A stretch of DNA of 64,000 bases, taken from positions 4,064,001 to 4,128,000 of the forward strand of contig OZ245002.1 of NCBI GenBank assembly GCA_965223415.1. Reading direction: 5' to 3'. The DNA comes from Myxococcota bacterium. Lineage in GTDB: Bacteria > Myxococcota_A > UBA9160 > UBA6930. Shown piece after piece: positions 9,984 to 20,607 of this stretch. The notes below the pieces were generated by a model that was not told where the DNA came from, did not search any database, and saw nothing but the letters and a program-made list of their open reading frames with translations. The translations under genes were made by a program, and so were the position numbers. The first letter of the stretch is position 1. Each line of letters opens with the position of its first letter.

Positions 9984-11079
9984 AGAGCTTCGCGTAATAG
10001 AGTGACAGTGGTATCTTCTGCCGTGGGAGGTGGGGGATGGCACGTCGTGACTTTGAGGGGCTGGAGAAGCGTCGCATGCGCGCGGTGCGGCTGTTCGAGC
10101 AAGGCGAGAGCCAGGCCAGCGTCGCGCGGCGGTTGCAGGTGAGTCGTACGACGGCGATGCGCTGGGCGCAGGCGTTGGAGGAGGAGGGGCGCGAGGGGCT
10201 TCGAGCCGCGGGTCGCGCAGGGCGGAAGCCGCGGCTTTCCGCCGAGCAGCTCGAAGACGTGGAAGTCGCGCTCCTGGAGGGACCGGTCGCGTCGGGCTAT
10301 GCGACGGCGTACTGGACGCTGCCCCGCGTGACCGAGGTGATCGAGCGCGTCACAGAGGAGCGCTTCCACCCCGGTCACGTCTGGCGCCTGTTGCGCAAGC
10401 TCGGCTGGTCACGTCAGAAGCCGACGACCCGGGCGCGGGAGCGCGATGACGCGGCCATCGAGCGTTGGGTGAAGACGACGTGGCCGGTGCTAAGAAAACA
10501 CGCCACAATGCCACGATCGTCTTCCTCGACGAGAGCGGCTTCTCGGAGCGGCCGTCGGTCCAACGGACCTGGGCGCCGCGGGGCCAAACGCCGGTCCTGA
10601 CGCATCGCTTCGGCCACTGGAAGCACCTCTCGGCGATCGGAGCCCTGGCCTACTCACCTCATGGCCGCCGCGCCCGCTTCTTCCTCGGACTGGTTCCCGG
10701 CGCCGTCCGGTCCGAGCACATCATCCGCTTCCTCCAGCGGCTGCACCGCCATCACCGCGGCCTCTGATCGTGATCTGGGACGGCGTCAATCCGCACCGCA
10801 GCCGCGCGACGCTGGCCTTCGCCGAACGCGAGCAGCACTGGCTCACGCTGGTCCGCCTCCCCGCCTACGCTCCTGATCTCAACCCCGTGGAAGGCGCGTG
10901 GTCGTGGTTCAAGCGCACGGTCTCGGCCAACTTCTGCCCTGAAGGCCTCGGCCCCTTGGTTCGGACTCTGCGCCTGGCACGGCGCCGACTGACACGCCGC
11001 CGGCCACTCTTGCTGGGCTTCCTCCACAAGAGCGGCCTTTCCTTGCCCTGACCGTCACTATATTACGCGAGATTCTCTA
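9981..11079 (+). mobile_element. IS630-family insertion sequence with terminal inverted repeats and TA target duplication
   Basis: Left end TA-GAGAGCTTCGCGTAATAGAGTGACAGT. Right end, reverse-complemented, TA-GAGAATCTCGCGTAATATAGTGACGGT. TA at 9981-82 and 11078-79. Confidence 0.92.
10037..11051 (+). pseudogene. IS630 transposase split over three reading frames
   Basis: HTH/winged-helix part (WTLPRV...LGWSRQKP), then FLDESG after a -1 shift near 10490-10499, then IWDG...LPAYAPDLNPVE after a second shift near 10760. Confidence 0.85.
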
Positions 11080-11205: not shown

Positions 11206-12057
11206 TCATGTGGCGGGGGCATGGGCGCGGGCTTGGGTTCGGTTGGGATGGGGGCGCGTTCGGGTTGTTTCGCGGCTTCCTTCTCTCCTGCGGGGCGGGC
11301 GGGTGTCCCGGCCAGCGGGGGGCGCGGTGCCTTGGCCGGCCCTGCTTCGAGAGGGAGACCGGCTAGGACGCGGGATCTCGGCTGGATCGAAGGCTGGCCC
11401 TGCCTTTCGCCAGCCCGTACCGAGGAGCCACGTGTGGGGGTCGGCGATGGCCCGGAGGTGGCCTCCTAGCCTGTTTCGTGCCTCCGCGACGAGAGCGCGA
11501 TTCCGGGCGGTGTGCTTCCACCCCTCGAACCAGCGCCCCGAGGAGGCCGGATCGATCCGCACGGCGGCGTCCCGCCGCCGTGCGTGCTTCCGCCCGTTCA
11601 GGAGCACGTAGCGGAGCGCGTTCCGCACCTGGGTCGGGGTCTTCAGCACGACGTGGTGATACCGGTCCTTCAGGACCGGCCCCGTCCGCGAGAACACCCG
11701 GTTCACCGCTCGGGCCAGTCTCGCACCCAGCGACTTCATCCCCCGCCCGAGCGCGTCGAACCCATGCGCCTCCACGATCAGGTGGACGTGGTCCCCCTGG
11801 ATCGAGTAGTGCACGAGCCGGAAGTCCCCCCGGTCGCAGGCCTTCGCGAAGGAGCGCTCGACCTCGTGCACGAGCTTCGCACGGCGAAGGGAAGGCACGT
11901 CGTCCCGCACCTTGAGCGTGACGTGACAGGGATAGCGGGAGGCCAGCTTCCCGCGCCGTAGGTGAGGCACGTTCGGGTTCGGCCCCGGCTTCCGCCCGGC
12001 CCGTTCTCGCTTCCCGCCCCAGGTGGGCAACGAAAGCTGCTTCGGTTCCCTACGCAT
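11206..12057 (-). CDS. HUH/Y1 tyrosine transposase, REP-associated (RAYT/TnpA-REP-like)
   Basis: HVTL, HYSIQGDHVHLIVEA (HUH), RLARAVN, DRYH and RNALRYVLLN (catalytic Tyr). The tail after ...AEIPRP looks spurious, so the true end may be near 11363. Confidence 0.85.
   Translation of the reverse strand: MRREPKQLSLPTWGGKRERAGRKPGPNPNVPHLRRGKLASRYPCHVTLKVRDDVPSLRRAKLVHEVERSFAKACDRGDFRLVHYSIQGDHVHLIVEAHGFDALGRGMKSLGARLARAVNRVFSRTGPVLKDRYHHVVLKTPTQVRNALRYVLLNGRKHARRRDAAVRIDPASSGRWFEGWKHTARNRALVAEARNRLGGHLRAIADPHTWLLGTGWRKAGPAFDPAEIPRPSRSPSRSRAGQGTAPPAGRDTRPPRRREGSRETTRTRPHPNRTQARAHAPAT
11250..11338 (-). repeat. Left arm of the ~85-bp degenerate inverted repeat flanking the RAYT gene
   Basis: The reverse complement of 11319-11338 is CGGCCAAGGCACCGCGCCCC, identical to 12125-12144. 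Similarity continues outward. Confidence 0.8.
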
Positions 12058-12124
12058 GACAGTGTTGAATCTAGCGATGTATTTTCGATGTCAACCCCAA
12101 GCCGGCAAACATGACGAGCAACCA

Positions 12125-12256: not shown

Positions 12257-13066
12257 TCAGGGCCGGAGAGCGCCGCCGCTCCCGCGGCGACGAACCAACG
12301 AGACGAGGAACAGCGCCACCGTGACGAGCGCGATCGTCGCACCCGCGGCCAGGTCGAGCTGGTAGGCGAGGGCGAGGCCGGCCAGGCCGGAGGCGGCGCC
12401 GAGGACCATCGACGTCGCGAGCTGTCCCCGGAAGTCCGCGGACCAGAGCGCCGCGGTGGCCGCCGGCACGACCAGCAGCGCCTCGATCAGGAGCACGCCG
12501 ACCAGGCGCACGCCGAGGATCACCGTCACCGCCAGGAGCACCAGCAGCAGCGTCTCGAGCCGGGCCACCGGATGGCCGTAGGCTCCGGCGATCTCGTCGT
12601 CGAAGGCGACGAACAGGTGCTCGCGGAAGGTGAGGGCGAGGGTCGCGAGGACCGCTACGCCGAGGACACCCAGCACCGCCAGCTCGGCGCCGCTGATCGC
12701 GAGCACGTTCCCGAACAGGAAGCCGAACAGATCCTGCTGGGCGCCGCGCCGCAGGCTCACCAGGGCCAGGCCCAGGGCCATGGCGCCGGTGAAGAAGACG
12801 CCGATCACCGTGTCCTGGGAAAGTGCGCTGCGACGGCGCGTCCAGGCGATCGCCACGGCCGTGGCCACGGCGAACACGGCGCCGCTCCACAGCGGGCTCA
12901 CGCCCACGAGCAGGCCGATGGCGATTCCGCCGATCGCCGCGTGGGAGATGCCGACGCCGGCGAAGGCCAGGCCACGCAGCACGACGAAGAACCCGAGCCC
13001 ACCGCACACCAGGCCCACGCCGACGGCGGCGGCGAGGGCTCTCTGCATGAAGGCCAGCTCGAGCAC
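12257..13066 (-). CDS. znuB: Zn/Mn ABC transporter permease (ZnuB-like)
   Basis: FMQRAL, ISHAAIGG, FLFGNVLA, VGVLLIEALLVVPA; in an operon with the ATPase and the binding protein. Confidence 0.88.
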   Translation of the reverse strand: MLELAFMQRALAAAVGVGLVCGGLGFFVVLRGLAFAGVGISHAAIGGIAIGLLVGVSPLWSGAVFAVATAVAIAWTRRRSALSQDTVIGVFFTGAMALGLALVSLRRGAQQDLFGFLFGNVLAISGAELAVLGVLGVAVLATLALTFREHLFVAFDDEIAGAYGHPVARLETLLLVLLAVTVILGVRLVGVLLIEALLVVPAATAALWSADFRGQLATSMVLGAASGLAGLALAYQLDLAAGATIALVTVALFLVSLVRRRGSGGALRP

Positions 13067-13072
13067 GCTCCT

Positions 13073-13849
13073 TCAGTGCCCCGGCCCGTGGCGCCCGTGG
13101 TGGTCGAGCTCCGCCCGCAGGAAGTCGAACTCGCAGGCGTAGGCCTCCTTCAGCGCGTGGCTGTGCACGACTTCCTCCGGGTGGCCGTGGACGTGCATGC
13201 GGCGGTTGATGCACAGCAGGCGATCCGCCTCGCCGGCCAGGGCGACGAGATCGTGAGAGACGGCGATCACCGCCAGGCCGAGGTCCCGTTGCAGGCGCCG
13301 GCACAGTCGGTAGAAGGCCTGCTCCGCCGGCAGGTCGAGGCCGACCGTGGGCTCGTCGAGGATCAGGAGTCGGGTGCTGGCGCAGAGCGCCTGGGCGAGC
13401 ACCGCGCGCCGCTGCTCGCCGCCGGAGAGGCGGCCGATGGGCCGTTCCGCCAGCTCCGCGATGCCGACCCGCGCCAGGCTCTCCGCGACGGCCTCGCGAT
13501 CGGCGGCGGTGGGTCGGAGCCGCTGCCACAGGCCGCGGCGGCCCATGCGTCCCATGGCCACGACGTCGCGCACCCGGGCGGGGAAGTCGGCGGGCACGGC
13601 GCTGCGCTGGGGCACGTAGCCGATGCCCTCCTCCCGGCGACGGCCCGGCGGGTGGCCGAGCACGAGCACCCGGCCGGCGTCCGGCTCGATGAGGCCGAGC
13701 AGCGTCTTCAGGAGCGTGGTCTTGCCGGCGCCGTTGGGGCCGCAGATGCCCGCGAACTCCCCGGGCGCCACCTCGAAGGCGATGTCCTCGAGCACGGGAT
13801 GGCCGCCGCGACTCACCCGGAGCTCCTCGACGTGGACGACGGCGTTCAT
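13073..13849 (-). CDS. znuC: Zn/Mn ABC transporter ATPase (ZnuC-like)
   Basis: GPNGAGKTT, IGYVPQ, LSGGEQRR, LDEPT, SHDL and a His-rich C-terminus. Confidence 0.9.
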   Translation of the reverse strand: MNAVVHVEELRVSRGGHPVLEDIAFEVAPGEFAGICGPNGAGKTTLLKTLLGLIEPDAGRVLVLGHPPGRRREEGIGYVPQRSAVPADFPARVRDVVAMGRMGRRGLWQRLRPTAADREAVAESLARVGIAELAERPIGRLSGGEQRRAVLAQALCASTRLLILDEPTVGLDLPAEQAFYRLCRRLQRDLGLAVIAVSHDLVALAGEADRLLCINRRMHVHGHPEEVVHSHALKEAYACEFDFLRAELDHHGRHGPGH

Positions 13850-14685
13850 CGGGGCTCTCCCAGGGCGCGGCGGAAGGCCGCCGCGTTGAAGCGAAGCAGC
13901 GCTTCATAGCTCGCGCGGGCCGGATCCGCCGGATCGCCGAGGGGATCCACCAGCTCGGTACCGGCTTCGAGCTCCGCAGCGATCGCGCGGGCGAGGCGGG
14001 GAGGGAGCCCTGGCTCCACCAGGACGGCCCGCACGCCCGCCGCCCGCGCCTCGCGCACGACATGCGCGAGAGTCCGCGGGCCCGCCTCCCCGCCGTCCGC
14101 GTGACGGAGCACGCCCACGGCTTCGAGGCCGTAGCGGGCGGCGAAGGCGCCCCAGCCGTCATGGGCCGCGACGTAGCGCGTGCCCGCGCCGGACAGGTCG
14201 GCGCGCAGCGCACGATCGAGGGCGGTGAGCCGCTTCTGGAACGCGGTCAGGCCGTCGGCATACGCCGATCGGTGTAGGGAGTCCCGGGCGACCAAGGCCT
14301 CGGTCAGCCGCGGCGCCAGCTCGTCGCGCACCGCCAGCGGGTCGAGCCATGCATGGGTTCGTGCCCCGGGGCCCCGAGACAAGACGACCCGGCGCTCCGG
14401 CCCCCGCGAAGCCGCGAGCCGCTCGGCCCAGGCGTCGCTGCCGTCGCCGGCGGACACGAACAGGCACGCGGTCTCCACCCGGGCCACGTCCGACGGCCGC
14501 GGCTCGAAGGCGTGGGGGCTCGCTCCGGGCGGGACCAGTGCGAACGCCTCCACGCGCTCGCCGCCGATCTCTTCCGTCATCCACGCCAGTGGCAGCAGGG
14601 TGGCCGCGACCGTGCCGCACGCCCCCGCAGCGGCGGGGAGCAGGCCGGCGAGCAGCCCGAGCACGAGAGCCAGCCGGCGCGCCAT
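13846..14685 (-). CDS. znuA: Zn/Mn ABC substrate-binding protein (ZnuA/cluster A-I)
   Basis: Signal peptide MARRLALVLGLL, plus GASPHAFEP, HAWLDP, AAHDGW and VDPLG. ATG 14685 overlaps the CDF stop. Confidence 0.85.
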   Translation of the reverse strand: MARRLALVLGLLAGLLPAAAGACGTVAATLLPLAWMTEEIGGERVEAFALVPPGASPHAFEPRPSDVARVETACLFVSAGDGSDAWAERLAASRGPERRVVLSRGPGARTHAWLDPLAVRDELAPRLTEALVARDSLHRSAYADGLTAFQKRLTALDRALRADLSGAGTRYVAAHDGWGAFAARYGLEAVGVLRHADGGEAGPRTLAHVVREARAAGVRAVLVEPGLPPRLARAIAAELEAGTELVDPLGDPADPARASYEALLRFNAAAFRRALGEPR

Positions 14686-15611
14686 CAGCAGACCTCGACC
14701 GATTCCTCGAAGTCCTCGGGCTCGATCTGGATCGTCACGTGCTCGATGGCGAAGCGCTCGCGCAGGAGGTTCTGGAGCTCGCCCAGGAGCCGCGCCGGCG
14801 GATCGCCGTCGCAGCAGGTGACGTGGCAGGAGAGCGACACCATGCCGCTGGTGATGGTCCAGACGTGCAGGTCGTGCACCGAGTGCACGCCTTCGGCCCG
14901 GCCGAGCACCTGGCCGATCTCGTCCACGTCCAGATGCGGCGGCGCGGACTCGAGCAGCACGTCGACCGTCTCCCTCAGCAGGGTCCACGCCGAGGCGAGC
15001 ACGAGCACGGCGATCAGCGCCGAGGCGATCGGGTCCGCCAGGGTCCAGCCGAAGAGCCAGACGCAGGCTCCCGCCGCCATGGCGCCGATGCTGCCCAGCG
15101 CGTCGCTCAGCAGGTGGAGCCAGGCGCCGCGCAGGTTGAGGCTGTCTGAACGGCCGCCGTGGAGCAGGACGAGCCCCACCACGTTCACCCCCAGGCCGCC
15201 GGTGGCGATGGCGAGCATCGGCAGCCCCAGCACGTCCGGCGGCGCGGCGCTCCGCTCCCAGGCCTCGACCAGGATGAAGACCGCGACCACGACCAGCGCG
15301 GTGCCGTTCGCGAGCGCCGCCAGGATCTCCATGCGCCGATAGCCGAAAGTGCGCGCGACCGGCGCGGGGCGCAGGGCGAGCCACAGGGCGAAGAGCGAGA
15401 GGCTCAGGGCCGCCACGTCCGACAGCATGTGACCCGCGTCGGCCAGGAGTGCCAGGGAGCCGGTCCACAGGCCGCCCACCACTTCCGCGACCATGTAGGT
15501 CGCGGCTAGTCCGAGGGTCCACGCCAGGCGCCGCCTCTGCTCCCGCCGGGAGAGCCCGGCGGGCGGCCCGTGGCCGTGCCCGTCGCCCGGCCCCTGTGCG
15601 TGGTCGTGCAT
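14685..15611 (-). CDS. Cation diffusion facilitator (CzcD/ZitB-like)
   Basis: His-rich N-terminus, SLALLADAGHMLSD, TFGYRRMEILAAL, HLLSDALGS, VHDLHVW and HVTIQIE. Start is ATG 15611 or GTG 15617. Confidence 0.92.
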   Translation of the reverse strand: MHDHAQGPGDGHGHGPPAGLSRREQRRRLAWTLGLAATYMVAEVVGGLWTGSLALLADAGHMLSDVAALSLSLFALWLALRPAPVARTFGYRRMEILAALANGTALVVVAVFILVEAWERSAAPPDVLGLPMLAIATGGLGVNVVGLVLLHGGRSDSLNLRGAWLHLLSDALGSIGAMAAGACVWLFGWTLADPIASALIAVLVLASAWTLLRETVDVLLESAPPHLDVDEIGQVLGRAEGVHSVHDLHVWTITSGMVSLSCHVTCCDGDPPARLLGELQNLLRERFAIEHVTIQIEPEDFEESVEVC

Positions 15612-15654
15612 GGGCACATGCTACCTTCCGCCGCCCTCGCTGCCCGGAGACTCC

Positions 15655-16425
15655 ATGGCCGACTTCGAGATCCACACCGTCCTCTGCCTCACCGACAACT
15701 ACGCCGTGCTCCTGCACGACGCGGAAGCCGGCGTGACCGCCGTCGTCGACACGCCGGAGGTCGCACCGATCGAGGCCGCCCTTGCGGAGAAGGGCTGGCG
15801 GCTCACCCACATCCTGAACACCCACTGGCACCCGGACCACACAGGCGGGAACCTGGAGCTCCAGGAGAAGACCGGGGCTCACATCATCGGGCCGCGGAAC
15901 GAGCAGGAGAAGATTCCCGGCATCCAGACCGCCGTGGGGCAGGGCGACAGCTTCGACCTGGGCGGCCACGAGGTCCGCGTGCTCGACGTGCCCGGCCACA
16001 CCGCGGGCGCGGTCAACTACTTCTTCCCGGACGACAAGCTGGTCTTCACCGGCGATACGCTCTTCGCCATGGGCTGCGGCCGGCTCTTCGAAGGGACGCC
16101 CGAGACGATGTGGGGATCGCTCCAGAAGCTGATGGCGCTGCCGAAGGACACGCGGGTCTACTTCGGCCACGAGTACACCGAGTCCAACGCCACCTTCGCC
16201 CTCTCCGTGGACCCGGACAACCCGGACCTGCGCGCCCGCGCCCAGCAGGTGGAGGAGACCCGGGCCGCCGGGCAGGCGACGATCCCGAGCACGATCGATC
16301 TCGAGCTGCGCACCAACCCGTTCCTGCGCGCGGAAGATCCCGGCCTCCAGAAGACCGTCGACCTGGTCGGTGCGAATCCGATCGCGGTGTTTGCGGAAAC
16401 CCGGCTACGTAAGGATAACTCCTGA
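15655..16425 (+). CDS. gloB: Hydroxyacylglutathione hydrolase (glyoxalase II)
   Basis: DNYA, THWHPDHTGG, PGHT, FTGDTLF..GCGRLFEG, GHEYT and TNPFLR. Confidence 0.92.
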   Translation: MADFEIHTVLCLTDNYAVLLHDAEAGVTAVVDTPEVAPIEAALAEKGWRLTHILNTHWHPDHTGGNLELQEKTGAHIIGPRNEQEKIPGIQTAVGQGDSFDLGGHEVRVLDVPGHTAGAVNYFFPDDKLVFTGDTLFAMGCGRLFEGTPETMWGSLQKLMALPKDTRVYFGHEYTESNATFALSVDPDNPDLRARAQQVEETRAAGQATIPSTIDLELRTNPFLRAEDPGLQKTVDLVGANPIAVFAETRLRKDNS

Positions 16426-16430
16426 CGCTC

Positions 16431-16727
16431 ATGGATCGCGGCTGCGCCATCGCCACGGCGGCCCTCGTCGCCCTCGCCCTGCTCCTCGGAGCAGCGCACG
16501 TCCACGAGGTCGTCGTCGGCGATGCACCGGCGATCGCCGTCGCCGAGCATGACGCGGCGCCGGGGCCGTGCCTGGCCTGTGGGGCGTCCGCCCCTGCGTC
16601 GGGCCCCGTTCTCCTGACGGCGTCGCTTGCCGACAGGCACCTGCTCGTTCGGCCCCCGAGCGCCGTCCTTCCCGCGACCCTCCACTTCGAGGACCACCCC
16701 ACGCGGGCACCTCCCGCCTTCGTCTGA
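16431..16727 (+). CDS. DUF2946/CruR-like leader protein (hydrophobic N-terminus, HxH, CxxC, C-terminal RAPP)
   Basis: 98 aa reading AALVALALLLGAAHVHE...CLAC...HPTRAPPAFV*, immediately upstream of a TonB-dependent receptor. Confidence 0.7.
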   Translation: MDRGCAIATAALVALALLLGAAHVHEVVVGDAPAIAVAEHDAAPGPCLACGASAPASGPVLLTASLADRHLLVRPPSAVLPATLHFEDHPTRAPPAFV

Positions 16728-16758
16728 CGCTTCCCTCCGTTCTCTCGACCACCCGAGT

Positions 16759-16782
16759 GCCGGCCCGCCCGGCCGGCGGAGA
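16759..16782 (+). promoter_or_regulatory. GC hairpin abutting the receptor ribosome-binding site
   Basis: GCCGGCC (16759-65) pairs with GGCCGGC (16771-77), followed directly by GGAGA (16778-82) and ATG 16789. Confidence 0.45.
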
Positions 16783-16788
16783 TGCCTC

Positions 16789-18840
16789 ATGCGAATGCGA
16801 CGCCGCGTCGGCGCACGCCCGTTCGTGCTCGTTTCCCTGTTCGTCCTGTCCCTTCCGACCGCCCCGTGGGCCGATGAGCCCGATACCGACGGTCACCACC
16901 GCCACGAAGGCGGTGCTCTCGACGAGATCGTGGTGACGATCTCCGGCCACGAGAAGAGCCGCTTCGACGTCATCCACGGCACCAACGTCCTCGACGGCGA
17001 CGACCTGCGCCGCCAGCTGGAGGCCGGCATCGGCGACACCCTCTCGCGCCAGACCGGCGTGTCCTCGACCGGCTTCGCGCCGGGAGCGAGCCGGCCGGTG
17101 ATCCGCGGCCTCGGCGGCCCGCGAGTGCGCGTGCTCCAGAACGGCGTCGGCACTGTCGACGCGTCGACCACCAGCGAGGATCACGCGGTGGCGAGCGAGC
17201 CGCTCCTGGCCGAGCGCATCGAGGTGCTGCGCGGTGCCGGGACCCTGCGCTACGGCAGCAGCGCGGTCGGCGGCGTGGTGAACGTGATCGACGGGCGCGT
17301 GCCGAGCCGTGTGCCGGAGAACGGGATGGAGGCGGTCGTCGAAGGCGGCTACGGAAGCGCGGCGGACGAGCGGCGCGCGGCCGGCGCGGCCAACGCCGCA
17401 GTGCCGCTGGGCCCGGGCCACCTCGTCATCCACGGCGACGGCTTCATCCGCCGCACCCACGATCTCGAGGTGCCGGGCGGGCGCGTGGAGAACTCGGCGG
17501 TCGAGAGCCACGGGGGGAGCGGCGGGCTCTCCTTCGTCGGCGACGATGGCTTCCTGGGTGTGTCCTTCTCCCGGGGCGAAACGGTCTACGGCGTCCCGCT
17601 CGGAGAGGAAGAGGACGAAGAGGGCCACCACGAGGAGGAGGAACACGGCGACGAGGAGCACGGGCACGAGAACGTCCAGATCGACGGGCGCCAGAACCGC
17701 TTCGACCTGGCGAGCGAGCTGCGTCGCGATTTCGGTCCCTTCGCTGCCGTGGCGGGCCGAGCGGTCTGGGCCGACTACCAGCACACCGAGCTCGAGGGCG
17801 GCGAGCGCGGCACCGTGTTCGAGAACCGCGGCCTCGAGGGTCGGCTCGAGCTGATCCAGCAGCCCTTCGGCGCGCTCGACGGCGTGGTCGGCTTCCAGTT
17901 CCTGACCCGCGACTTCGAGGCGATCGGCGAAGAGGCCTTCGTGCCCCAGACCGACACCTTGCAGTGGGGGCTCTTCGCCGTCGAGGAGCTGCACCTGGAT
18001 CCCTTCACGATCGAGGGTGGGCTGCGCCTCGAGCGCACCGAGTACGATCCGAGCAGGGGGTTCGGCGACGCGAGCTTCACCGGCGTGAGCGCGTCGCTCG
18101 GCGCCGCCTGGGAGCCGACCGAGGAGTGGATCCTGGGCGCCTCGCTCTCGCGCACCGAGCGCGCACCGTCGGTGGAGGAGCTCTTCTCGGACGGGCCGCA
18201 CCTAGCGACGGGGGGCTTCGAGATCGGGGATGCCGACCTGGATGAGGAGGTCGCCTGGAGCCTCGAGCTGACGACGAGGCGCCGGCTCGGTCGGCTGACC
18301 GGGGGGCTCAACCTGTTCTACACGCGCTTCGAGGACTTCATCTTCCAGCAGGAGGCGGGCGGGATCGAGGACGGCCTGCCCATCCGCCTCTACGTCCAGC
18401 GCGACGCCATGTTTCACGGCGCGGAGCTCGACATCGCCTACGAGCTGTTCGAGACCGACGCCTGGACCGGCATCCTCGACCTGGGCGCCGACTACGTCCG
18501 CGGCCGCGAGCACAACGGGAGCGATCTCCCGCGCATCCCCCCGATCCGCGTGCGTGTCGGCGCCGAGGCGCGCAGCACCTGGGTCGACGGGCGCATCGAG
18601 GTGCTGTGGGTCGATGACCAGAGTCGGGTCGCCGACGGCGAGGCGCCGACCGACGACCACACCCTGCTGAACGCGAGCCTCAGCTTCCGCCCGATGCCGG
18701 AGAAGCGCCCCGACCTCTCCATCCTGCTGCAGGGCCGCAACCTCACCGACGAGAAGGCTCGCAACCACGTCTCCTTCCTGAAGGACCAGCTGCCGCTCGC
18801 CGGGCGCGACGTCCGCGTTTCGGTGCGGCTCGCCTTCTAG
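16789..18840 (+). CDS. TonB-dependent receptor, ZnuD-like with a His/Glu-rich loop
   Basis: TonB box LDEIVVT, plug motifs ASRPVIRGLGGPRV and RIEVLRGAGTLRYGSSAVGGVVN, loop EEGHHEEEEHGDEEHGHE, ELFSDGPHLAT, and C-terminal Phe. Confidence 0.92.
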   Translation: MRMRRRVGARPFVLVSLFVLSLPTAPWADEPDTDGHHRHEGGALDEIVVTISGHEKSRFDVIHGTNVLDGDDLRRQLEAGIGDTLSRQTGVSSTGFAPGASRPVIRGLGGPRVRVLQNGVGTVDASTTSEDHAVASEPLLAERIEVLRGAGTLRYGSSAVGGVVNVIDGRVPSRVPENGMEAVVEGGYGSAADERRAAGAANAAVPLGPGHLVIHGDGFIRRTHDLEVPGGRVENSAVESHGGSGGLSFVGDDGFLGVSFSRGETVYGVPLGEEEDEEGHHEEEEHGDEEHGHENVQIDGRQNRFDLASELRRDFGPFAAVAGRAVWADYQHTELEGGERGTVFENRGLEGRLELIQQPFGALDGVVGFQFLTRDFEAIGEEAFVPQTDTLQWGLFAVEELHLDPFTIEGGLRLERTEYDPSRGFGDASFTGVSASLGAAWEPTEEWILGASLSRTERAPSVEELFSDGPHLATGGFEIGDADLDEEVAWSLELTTRRRLGRLTGGLNLFYTRFEDFIFQQEAGGIEDGLPIRLYVQRDAMFHGAELDIAYELFETDAWTGILDLGADYVRGREHNGSDLPRIPPIRVRVGAEARSTWVDGRIEVLWVDDQSRVADGEAPTDDHTLLNASLSFRPMPEKRPDLSILLQGRNLTDEKARNHVSFLKDQLPLAGRDVRVSVRLAF

Positions 18841-18942
18841 TTCCGTCCGATTCGATCCAGCAGGCCGGAGACGTCCGCGGCCCAGCGCTCCCCATCGGAG
18901 AGCACCATGAGCTGATGCTCCGCACGCGCGCTCACGGCCGCC

Positions 18943-20607
<1,665 letters not shown>

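Follow-up and report, generated by a model that had tools for sequence, protein, structure and literature searches.

A candidate CruR-type metal-sensing arrest leader upstream of a ZnuD-like receptor gene in a Myxococcota genome

Leader, spacer and receptor gene at the locus

The DNA analysed here is a 64-kb stretch of contig OZ245002.1 (positions 4,064,001 to 4,128,000 of the forward strand; below, the window, in whose own coordinates all features are given) from a Myxococcota bacterium (assembly GCA_965223415.1), in which a small open reading frame (ORF) directly precedes the gene of a ZnuD-like TonB-dependent receptor. This leader ORF (16431..16727, plus strand) consists of 98 codons followed by TGA, and its product is a candidate arrest peptide of the CruR/DUF2946 type. 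Its N-terminus contains Arg3 and then 17 hydrophobic residues (residues 6-22; 16446..16496), judged by eye to be an export signal or an N-in membrane anchor, which are followed by the sequence HVHE (residues 23-26; 16497..16508), whose His23 and His25 are candidate metal ligands, by the CxxC metal motif CLAC (Cys47 and Cys50; 16569..16580) and by RAPP (residues 92-95; 16704..16715), encoded by CGG GCA CCT CCC and separated from the stop codon only by AFV. RAPP is the predicted stall site, and by analogy with the CruR toeprint in the available text of PMC12992588 the ribosome is predicted to halt when Pro94 occupies its P site and Pro95 its A site. The G+C content of the ORF by codon position (0.82/0.56/0.86) shows a coding-like pattern within DNA of 72% G+C.

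The leader and the receptor gene are separated by a spacer of 61 nt (16728-16788, plus strand), which contains after the leader stop codon the pyrimidine tract TCCCTCCG (16732..16739), then a 7-bp GC hairpin with a 5-nt loop (GCCGGCC/GGCCGGC; 16759-16765 and 16771-16777) and the receptor initiation region (16778..16791), where the Shine-Dalgarno (SD) sequence GGAGA at 16778-82 abuts the hairpin and the ATG occupies positions 16789-91. The receptor itself (16789..18840, plus strand) is a protein of 683 aa with Pfam plug and barrel domains. The initial annotation, made from the DNA letters without database searches, had described the leader with its signal-like N-terminus, HVHE, CLAC and RAPP near the stop, as well as the spacer with its pyrimidine tract, hairpin, GGAGA and start codon, and each of these was found where it had been placed.

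Conservation and family placement of the leader

Taken alone, the motif set of the leader is not beyond chance. Among the 46,256 ORFs of its own genome (six-frame, stop to stop, at least 60 aa), 214 end in R[AG]PP with at most 7 aa following, and five of these have in addition a CxxC 38-50 aa upstream of the terminal R[AG]PP, the other four being Arg-rich junk frames. Searches with the single sequence were equally uninformative: the leader product had no Pfam match even at E<=10 and no NCBIfam match, a word-indexed protein search returned only the leader itself, a six-frame search of 41 related genomes gave chance-level matches only (best foreign E 0.0015, due to low-complexity Ala/Pro), and an Rfam scan of 15500-17500 yielded nothing at E<=1. 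The leader family came to light solely by inspecting the DNA upstream of receptor homologues. Such homologues were found in 12 further genomes from the family and order of this one (35-54% identity by tblastn) and were not found at E<=1e-50 in five congeners, while an Alteromonas locus matching the receptor at 33% identity was not used. In 11 of the 12 relatives' loci, L013 being the exception, the receptor gene is immediately preceded by an ORF of equivalent layout, with a hydrophobic segment, HxH, CxxC and R-A/G/P-P-P located 1-6 residues before the stop. It is this conservation of layout in related loci that raises the leader ORF above chance, and hence the conservation of HxH, CxxC and RAPP upstream of orthologous receptors, which had been named in the initial annotation as a check, was borne out, with RxPP in place of strict RAPP. 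That the leader is a chance ORF of a 72% G+C genome, as the five genome ORFs sharing the motif set and the single-sequence searches without a homologue would allow, is thus already contradicted by the conservation in the relatives, by the 79 profile matches described below and by the coding-like codon-position G+C, and the probability left to it is close to nil.

In the alignment of the 12 leader products (A1), the hydrophobic stretch is aligned in all 12 rows, H25 is kept in at least 90%, and only C47, C50, R92, P94 and P95 are invariant. The CxxC is likewise invariant in alignments A2 and A3, and R92, P94 and P95 are invariant in A2, in at least 90% of which H23 is retained; HxH is present too in the set of DUF2946-scoring proteins. 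Mean column identity amounts to 34% in A1 and 14% in A2. CruR-type leaders have been reported as poorly structured. The A1 profile matched, at E<=1e-3, 79 proteins among 1.84 billion representatives, all of them full-length matches, and all 79 carry CxxC, a gap of 41-48 aa and RxPP, the latter as RAPP (66), RGPP (11), RPPP (1) or RSPP (1). The tail after RxPP measures 1-7 aa in 77 of the 79 and 10 and 16 aa in the remaining two, with 3 aa as the commonest length (29/79), as in the leader here.

This pattern of conservation bears on whether the ORF encodes a small exported metal-binding protein that acts in trans, for example as a periplasmic chaperone or receptor partner, with RAPP being incidental. 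An export-like N-terminus, His/Cys ligands and a conserved position by the receptor would suit such a protein, but conservation is confined to the membrane segment, HxH, CxxC and RxPP amid the low overall identity in A1 and A2, both the distance from CxxC to RxPP and the placing of RxPP close to the C-terminus are constant, and rare CCT codons occupy the Pro-Pro site. Moreover, CruR and CutF are undetectable as stable proteins (PMC9426467, in its available text; PMC9973294), and a function in trans is accordingly given very little weight here.

The link to DUF2946 emerges at the level of the profile. The leader product by itself gives no match to PF11162, whose gathering score is 23.7 bits, and 4 of the 12 subfamily members touch this model weakly (best E 0.0067). 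Of the proteins matched by the A1 profile, PF11162 hits 45 of 79 at E<=1, and its cut-off is exceeded by full-length matches in 6 of 78. When A1 was aligned by hhalign with A3, an alignment of nine DUF2946-scoring proteins, a probability of 97.2% (E 4.6e-11) was obtained with HxH, CxxC and RAPP in register, a figure that is not independent because A3 was drawn from A1's own matches. In the ESM Atlas the nearest clusters to the leader product are unnamed, one of them having DUF2946 on 13% of its members, which provides a lead only. The search against the DUF2946 model that the initial annotation had proposed therefore succeeded through the profile and failed for the leader product alone, and these profile comparisons support the placement of the leader in the CruR/CutF (DUF2946) superfamily as a divergent member. 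As the Pfam model misses this subfamily, such leaders remain unannotated. Elsewhere in the genome, a weak DUF2946 match at G000:C1:2617723-2618046 is overlapped by longer enzyme-sized ORFs and was dismissed by eye as spurious.

The closest known arrangement is that of CruR (Bp2923 of Bordetella pertussis), the prototype of DUF2946/PF11162, whose layout was shown experimentally to work according to the available text of PMC9426467, and whose arrest and toeprint are described in that of PMC12992588. In both cases a small upstream ORF, whose product carries an export signal and an invariant CxxC and has RAPP three residues from its C-terminus, lies directly before the gene of a TonB-dependent receptor, the spacer is rich in G+C, and a tract with C in excess of G begins in the 3' half of the ORF and continues into the spacer. 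Unlike CruR, the leader is unseen by the Pfam model and precedes a ZnuD-like receptor in place of one from the CrtA family, the receptor gene is not followed by a PepSY_TM gene, zinc genes lie nearby, and the spacer has 61 nt as compared to 162 nt. In the CruR family the leader heads its operon; here it does lie directly before the TonB receptor gene, yet gloB ends 5 nt upstream of it and no promoter was found. The CxxC-RAPP gap differs as well. Roy et al. describe the DUF2946/CruR layout as export signal, CXXC and RAPP three residues from the end with a 45-residue spacing, which is kept within one or two residues; changes of -1, -2, +1, +2 and +5 were tried in the available text, and not -4 (PMC9426467). 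The leader has a gap of 41 aa, which is the shortest and the sole such value among the 79 profile matches, whose mode is about 44-46. Together with the failure of the single-sequence searches against Pfam, NCBIfam and the word-indexed protein set, and with the position of gloB, this spacing counts against the reading of the ORF as a CruR-family leader.

As a separate observation, leaders belonging to this CxxC/RxPP family at loci L062, L066, L074 (from congener G004) and L076-L079, from further genomes in the phylum, precede the gene of a signal-peptide protein without a Pfam domain and not a TonB receptor. In most of these proteins a coiled-coil-like segment follows the signal peptide, and judged from their sequences they look like a second, uncharacterised target class of such leaders.

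Sequestration of the receptor ribosome-binding site and the missing Rho

In the minimum-energy fold of 16700-16810, GGAG at 16778-81 pairs with CUCC at 16735-38, so that the pyrimidine tract is the anti-SD partner of the receptor SD, and the GC hairpin is stacked under the anti-SD:SD helix (z -2.25; 4 of 200 shuffles as stable). In the same fold the receptor AUG region pairs with the last codons and the stop codon of the leader. The probability that the receptor SD is unpaired in free mRNA is 0.05-0.17, the second lowest among 14 SD-bearing candidate starts in the window, for which the median is 0.29. Pairing of a downstream SD with an anti-SD in leader-proximal RNA, which characterises the CutF type of switch, is thus found here. 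The locus contains two copies of CCUCC, one within the Pro-Pro codons (16710-16714) and one downstream of the stop codon (16734-38).

Across the 12 loci, the mean probability of an unpaired SD is 0.09 in free mRNA, 0.31 with the RNA masked by a stalled ribosome, whose P site was placed on the first Pro codon, and 0.22 when the ribosome sits on the stop codon. The Pro-Pro codons and the tail codons themselves form the anti-SD in most relatives. Duplexes between stall site and SD have a mean energy of -15.6 kcal/mol when matched and of -12.2 kcal/mol between mismatched loci, and none of 20,000 permutations reached the observed mean; anti-SD and SD covary across the relatives. Codon usage follows the same pattern, since the Pro-Pro codons of the 12 loci comprise 11/24 CCT and 2/24 CCA, as compared to 14/407 and 11/407 in the receptor genes, and CCT, a rare codon, and CCA account for none of the 31 Pro codons in the receptor gene of this locus. 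In a sample of 26 leaders from the phylum, which includes the window's own leader and four of the 12 loci, CCTCC was read by us in the Pro-Pro codons of 15, and hence stall site and anti-SD coincide, as expected for a switch of the SecM/CutF type. A local GC hairpin was likewise read from the dot-bracket folds of the spacer in 12 of 12 loci.

At the locus itself several points weigh against the opening of this helix by a ribosome stalled at RAPP. The SD partner lies 24-28 nt beyond the P site, after the stop codon and outside the stalled ribosome, because of which the modelled unmasking of the SD is small, from 0.05 to 0.10 in the model of this locus, and with a longer context still weak, from 0.17 to 0.22-0.27 for the SD and from 0.35 to 0.52-0.75 for the AUG. 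With the ribosome at the stop codon, the SD becomes open to at least the same degree (0.19-0.33), and pairing with the SD region as good as that of the stall-site window is shown by 59 of 79 other windows in the leader ORF. Finally, the locus has a C-rich and G-poor tract (C 0.50, G 0.21; 16640..16760, plus strand) which covers the 3' end of the leader and the first half of the spacer. Roy et al. link such an excess of C over G to Rho, and the model favoured here accounts for it only through Pro and pyrimidine codon content. The proposal of the initial annotation that an anti-SD tract and a hairpin control the receptor start was thus upheld in folding, through the GGAG:CUCC pairing, while the modelled unmasking by a stalled ribosome turned out to be weak at this locus.

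The C-rich tract is also an argument for a stall that acts mainly on the transcript, ending it early or exposing it to decay in the C-rich spacer as for CruR, instead of unmasking the ribosome-binding site (RBS). The tract at 16651-16770 has the strongest skew towards C over G among 6,390 windows in the 64 kb (GC skew -0.43 in the 100-nt window at 16661-16760) and is reminiscent of the cruR rut region in the available text of PMC9426467, and the GC hairpin could be a pause site; the weak modelled unmasking points in the same direction. Against it stand the covariation of anti-SD and SD in the relatives, a scan of 15400-19000 for promoters and terminators in which none was found, including no intrinsic terminator, and the missing rho gene. 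CruR acts via Rho, whereas in the one-contig 5.83-Mb genome studied here, rated 97% complete, PF07497 had no match, TIGR00767 reached at best 56.6 bits against a cut-off of 509 bits, and a Rho protein of the same order used as query gave at best 46.6 bits with 28% identity. Rho was found in 16 of 16 genomes from the other families of the order and in 10 of 24 from its own family. It was not found in 14 of the 24 family genomes, including genera g2, g4, g5, g6 and g9 and four of five congeners, a result which is worded as not found rather than absent because the relatives' assemblies are incomplete; a clade-level loss of Rho may be considered. Since no rho gene was found, the anti-SD/hairpin idea gains weight and a translational output is favoured, and control at the transcript level is held to be quite unlikely.

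Near the leader starts, TTGAC was seen by inspection 38-51 nt before the leader in 6 of 10 relatives with upstream sequence. In L012 (G028), an AT-rich perfect 11-2-11 inverted repeat, ATATTGTATGG-GC-CCATACAATAT, lies about 75-110 nt upstream of the leader and is a candidate operator; nothing similar occurs in the window.

Sensed metal and proposed switch

The metal was approached through the receptor class and the neighbouring genes. The receptor has His/Glu-rich stretches at residues 34-40 (HHRHE at 36-40) and at about 273-294, and scores 381.5 bits (E 9e-114) with the ZnuD model NF038289 of NCBIfam, which lies below the cut-off of 950 bits and makes it a ZnuD homologue and not an equivalog. 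Among solved structures, Neisseria ZnuD (PDB 4rdr) matches both plug and barrel (E 3e-65) and is the sole full-length relative, the other 12 of 13 matches at E<=1e-5 covering the plug only (about 1e-9). On the minus strand upstream of the leader lie the genes of a ZnuB-like ABC-3 permease (12257-13066) and its partner ABC ATPase (13073-13849), which form a zinc-type (ZnuBC) ABC pair, and of a ZitB-like CDF metal exporter (14685..15617), and a CobW-type GTPase is also encoded in the window. A CDF gene adjoins the leader-receptor unit divergently in at least four relatives' loci (L045, L046, L048 and L049), with ABC-3 or ABC ATPase genes in L045 and L046 and CobW genes in L044 and L045. The claim of the initial annotation that a ZnuD-like receptor lies beside zinc ABC and CDF genes thus holds, for a ZnuD homologue in a conserved zinc-gene neighbourhood. 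From gene context and receptor class, on which the assignment rests, zinc is the most likely metal.

The same arrest leader could instead sense copper, like CruR and CutF, with a receptor that imports copper or is shut by copper against mis-metallation. All DUF2946 leaders studied so far respond to copper (PMC9973294; PMC9426467 and bioRxiv 10.1101/2025.02.05.636593 in their available text), CxxC is a classic Cu(I) motif, and leaders with HxH and CxxC of the same clade also precede targets other than ZnuD in the phylum, because of which the ligand set does not single out zinc; these points speak against zinc. On the other side, the sole full-length solved relative of the receptor is a zinc receptor, as compared to a match of only E 5e-11 with the copper-receptor model TIGR01778, and no Bordetella CrtA chain was present among the 13 solved-structure matches at E<=1e-5, the presence of CrtA in the searched copy of PDB being unchecked. 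The neighbours are CDF, ABC-3, ABC ATPase and CobW genes and not the copper-related ones of the DUF2946/CruR family, as none for a copper ATPase, a multicopper oxidase, PCuAC, Sco or PepSY_TM was seen here or in the relatives' loci. Copper sensing is therefore regarded as unlikely.

The regulatory background is consistent with the suggestion of the initial annotation that the leader stands in for Zur. Using a six-frame search with the Pfam FUR model, a single Fur-family gene was detected in the genome (G000:C1:2611542-2611892; L041:1459-1902, minus strand) and exactly one in each of five congeners, with no separate Zur, PerR or Irr paralogue in any of them. By NCBIfam this gene is nearest to Fur and has only 46 bits with Zur. 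No Zur-type box GTTA-N5-TAAC with at most one mismatch occurs in the 64-kb window as compared to 0.5 expected, a weak negative, as another operator is possible in this phylum. Zur-repressed receptors such as Neisseria ZnuD and, in the available text of PMC4176598, Caulobacter ZnuK (znuK/L/M) resemble the present one as His-rich ZnuD homologues beside ZnuBC-type and CDF genes, but differ in that here the box is missing and the one Fur-family gene is Fur-like, so that control would be exerted post-transcriptionally via the leader.

Taken together, we consider the ORF a CruR-family metal-sensing arrest leader, with zinc as the probable metal, which acts on translation initiation rather than via Rho, and put the probability of this at about 60%; in its broad outline the interpretation of the initial annotation is thus supported, and the observation on which it was built confirmed. 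The leader would be a cis-acting regulatory ORF, whose nascent product would be directed to the membrane through its hydrophobic N-terminus, would present His23/His25 and Cys47/Cys50 as a metal site, and would arrest the ribosome translating it at Arg-Ala-Pro-Pro, with the P and A sites on Pro94 and Pro95. In free mRNA, the receptor SD and start codon would be held in a long-range helix with the last codons of the leader, its stop codon and the CCUCC tract, with the GC hairpin as a clamp on the SD helix. A ribosome parked at or beyond RAPP would open this helix and permit translation of the ZnuD-like receptor, and metal bound to the nascent chain would alter the dwell time of the ribosome at the arrest. 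The most likely logic would be CruR-like sensing, in which metal ends the arrest and turns the receptor off, with a CutF/SecM-like translational output; the CruR logic, with arrest keeping the receptor on and metal turning it off, is one that suits an importer. The analysis shows the gene with its conservation and family link, the class of the receptor, the zinc-gene surroundings, the sequestered SD and the missing Rho, whereas the arrest itself, the metal, where it is sensed and the sign of the response are what we infer. The opposite sign, a metal-induced stall that blocks coupling and turns the receptor off, fits this locus equally well because a terminating ribosome opens the SD to at least the same extent. 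More doubtful is the far-reaching version, according to which HxH and CxxC together make up a Cys2His2 site for zinc in the arrest peptide. The leader would then be the first of the CruR/CutF group to sense a metal other than copper and the main switch of outer-membrane zinc uptake, working by RBS unmasking alone in a lineage apparently without dedicated Zur and Rho.

Among known systems, CutF of Rhodobacter capsulatus (PMC9973294; bioRxiv 10.1101/2025.02.05.636593 in its available text) shares a DUF2946-type, Sec-targeted leader and differs by CxxxC and a PPP-type end, and by a copper-induced stall that switches on a detoxifying multicopper oxidase, whereas the leader here has CxxC and RAPP and an importer as target. 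SecM, ApdA and ApdP, as far as the available texts go (PMC7897499, PMC10951233, PMC10987492, PMC12992588), resemble it in a C-terminal R-A-P-P core whose final two codons occupy the P and A sites, in carrying a localisation signal at the N-terminus, and in regulating the gene that follows through exposure of the RBS. They differ in monitoring Sec/YidC activity and in being released by translocation pulling force, whereas the conserved His/Cys ligands and the metal-transport target here, read from sequence, point to metal sensing.

This kind of switch has thus already been published, and the zinc-type receptor context is the variant. According to the available text of PMC12992588, in which the word zinc does not occur, RAPP/RGPP upstream ORFs before TonB receptors are widespread in Gram-negative phyla, and DUF2946 genes are among those affected by Zur in Caulobacter, with no leader-receptor link drawn in the available text of PMC4176598. 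In the papers searched no CruR-type leader linked to zinc uptake was found; such loci may be listed in the supplementary tables accompanying Roy et al. and the EMBO Journal paper. Metal-sensing arrest peptides have so far been demonstrated only for copper and in two proteobacteria, with differing outputs (Rho in CruR, SD unmasking in CutF), and the locus described here is distinguished by its ZnuD and zinc-gene context, by a Pfam-invisible subfamily and by a host in which neither Rho nor a separate Zur was found. A probable origin in the Myxococcota, to which the ESM Atlas neighbour of the iPGM gene gives a lead, is a further such point and agrees with the different phylum proposed in the initial annotation. 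If the leader senses zinc, nascent-chain metal sensing would extend beyond copper, and the locus would illustrate how zinc uptake can be controlled in the absence of its textbook repressor. The apparent lack of Rho provides a natural test of whether the switch of this family can work by translation alone.

Upstream genes and rearrangement of the zinc locus

Upstream of the leader, gloB (15610..16425, plus strand) encodes a hydroxyacylglutathione hydrolase of the metallo-beta-lactamase fold (TIGR03413, E 4e-95), whose true start is probably Met16 at 15655 because the model match begins at residue 21. Its stop codon lies 5 nt before the leader ATG, so that the two may be co-transcribed or translationally coupled and the leader is not clearly the first gene of an operon; in the relatives checked the leader is instead directly divergent to the CDF gene. 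Between the ABC ATPase and CDF genes, the segment 13850-14684 has 72-83% G+C and no ORF with coding-like codon-position G+C, and may be the remnant of a gene, for example of a lost ZnuA, or else non-coding but structured. Near the ZnuB-like gene are found two transposase-like ORFs (10037-10600, plus strand, and 11206-12057, minus strand), with matches to HTH_33/HTH_23 and a weak match to the IS200-type Y1_Tnp, and a dip in G+C at about 12030-12120, which together hint at a past rearrangement of the zinc locus.

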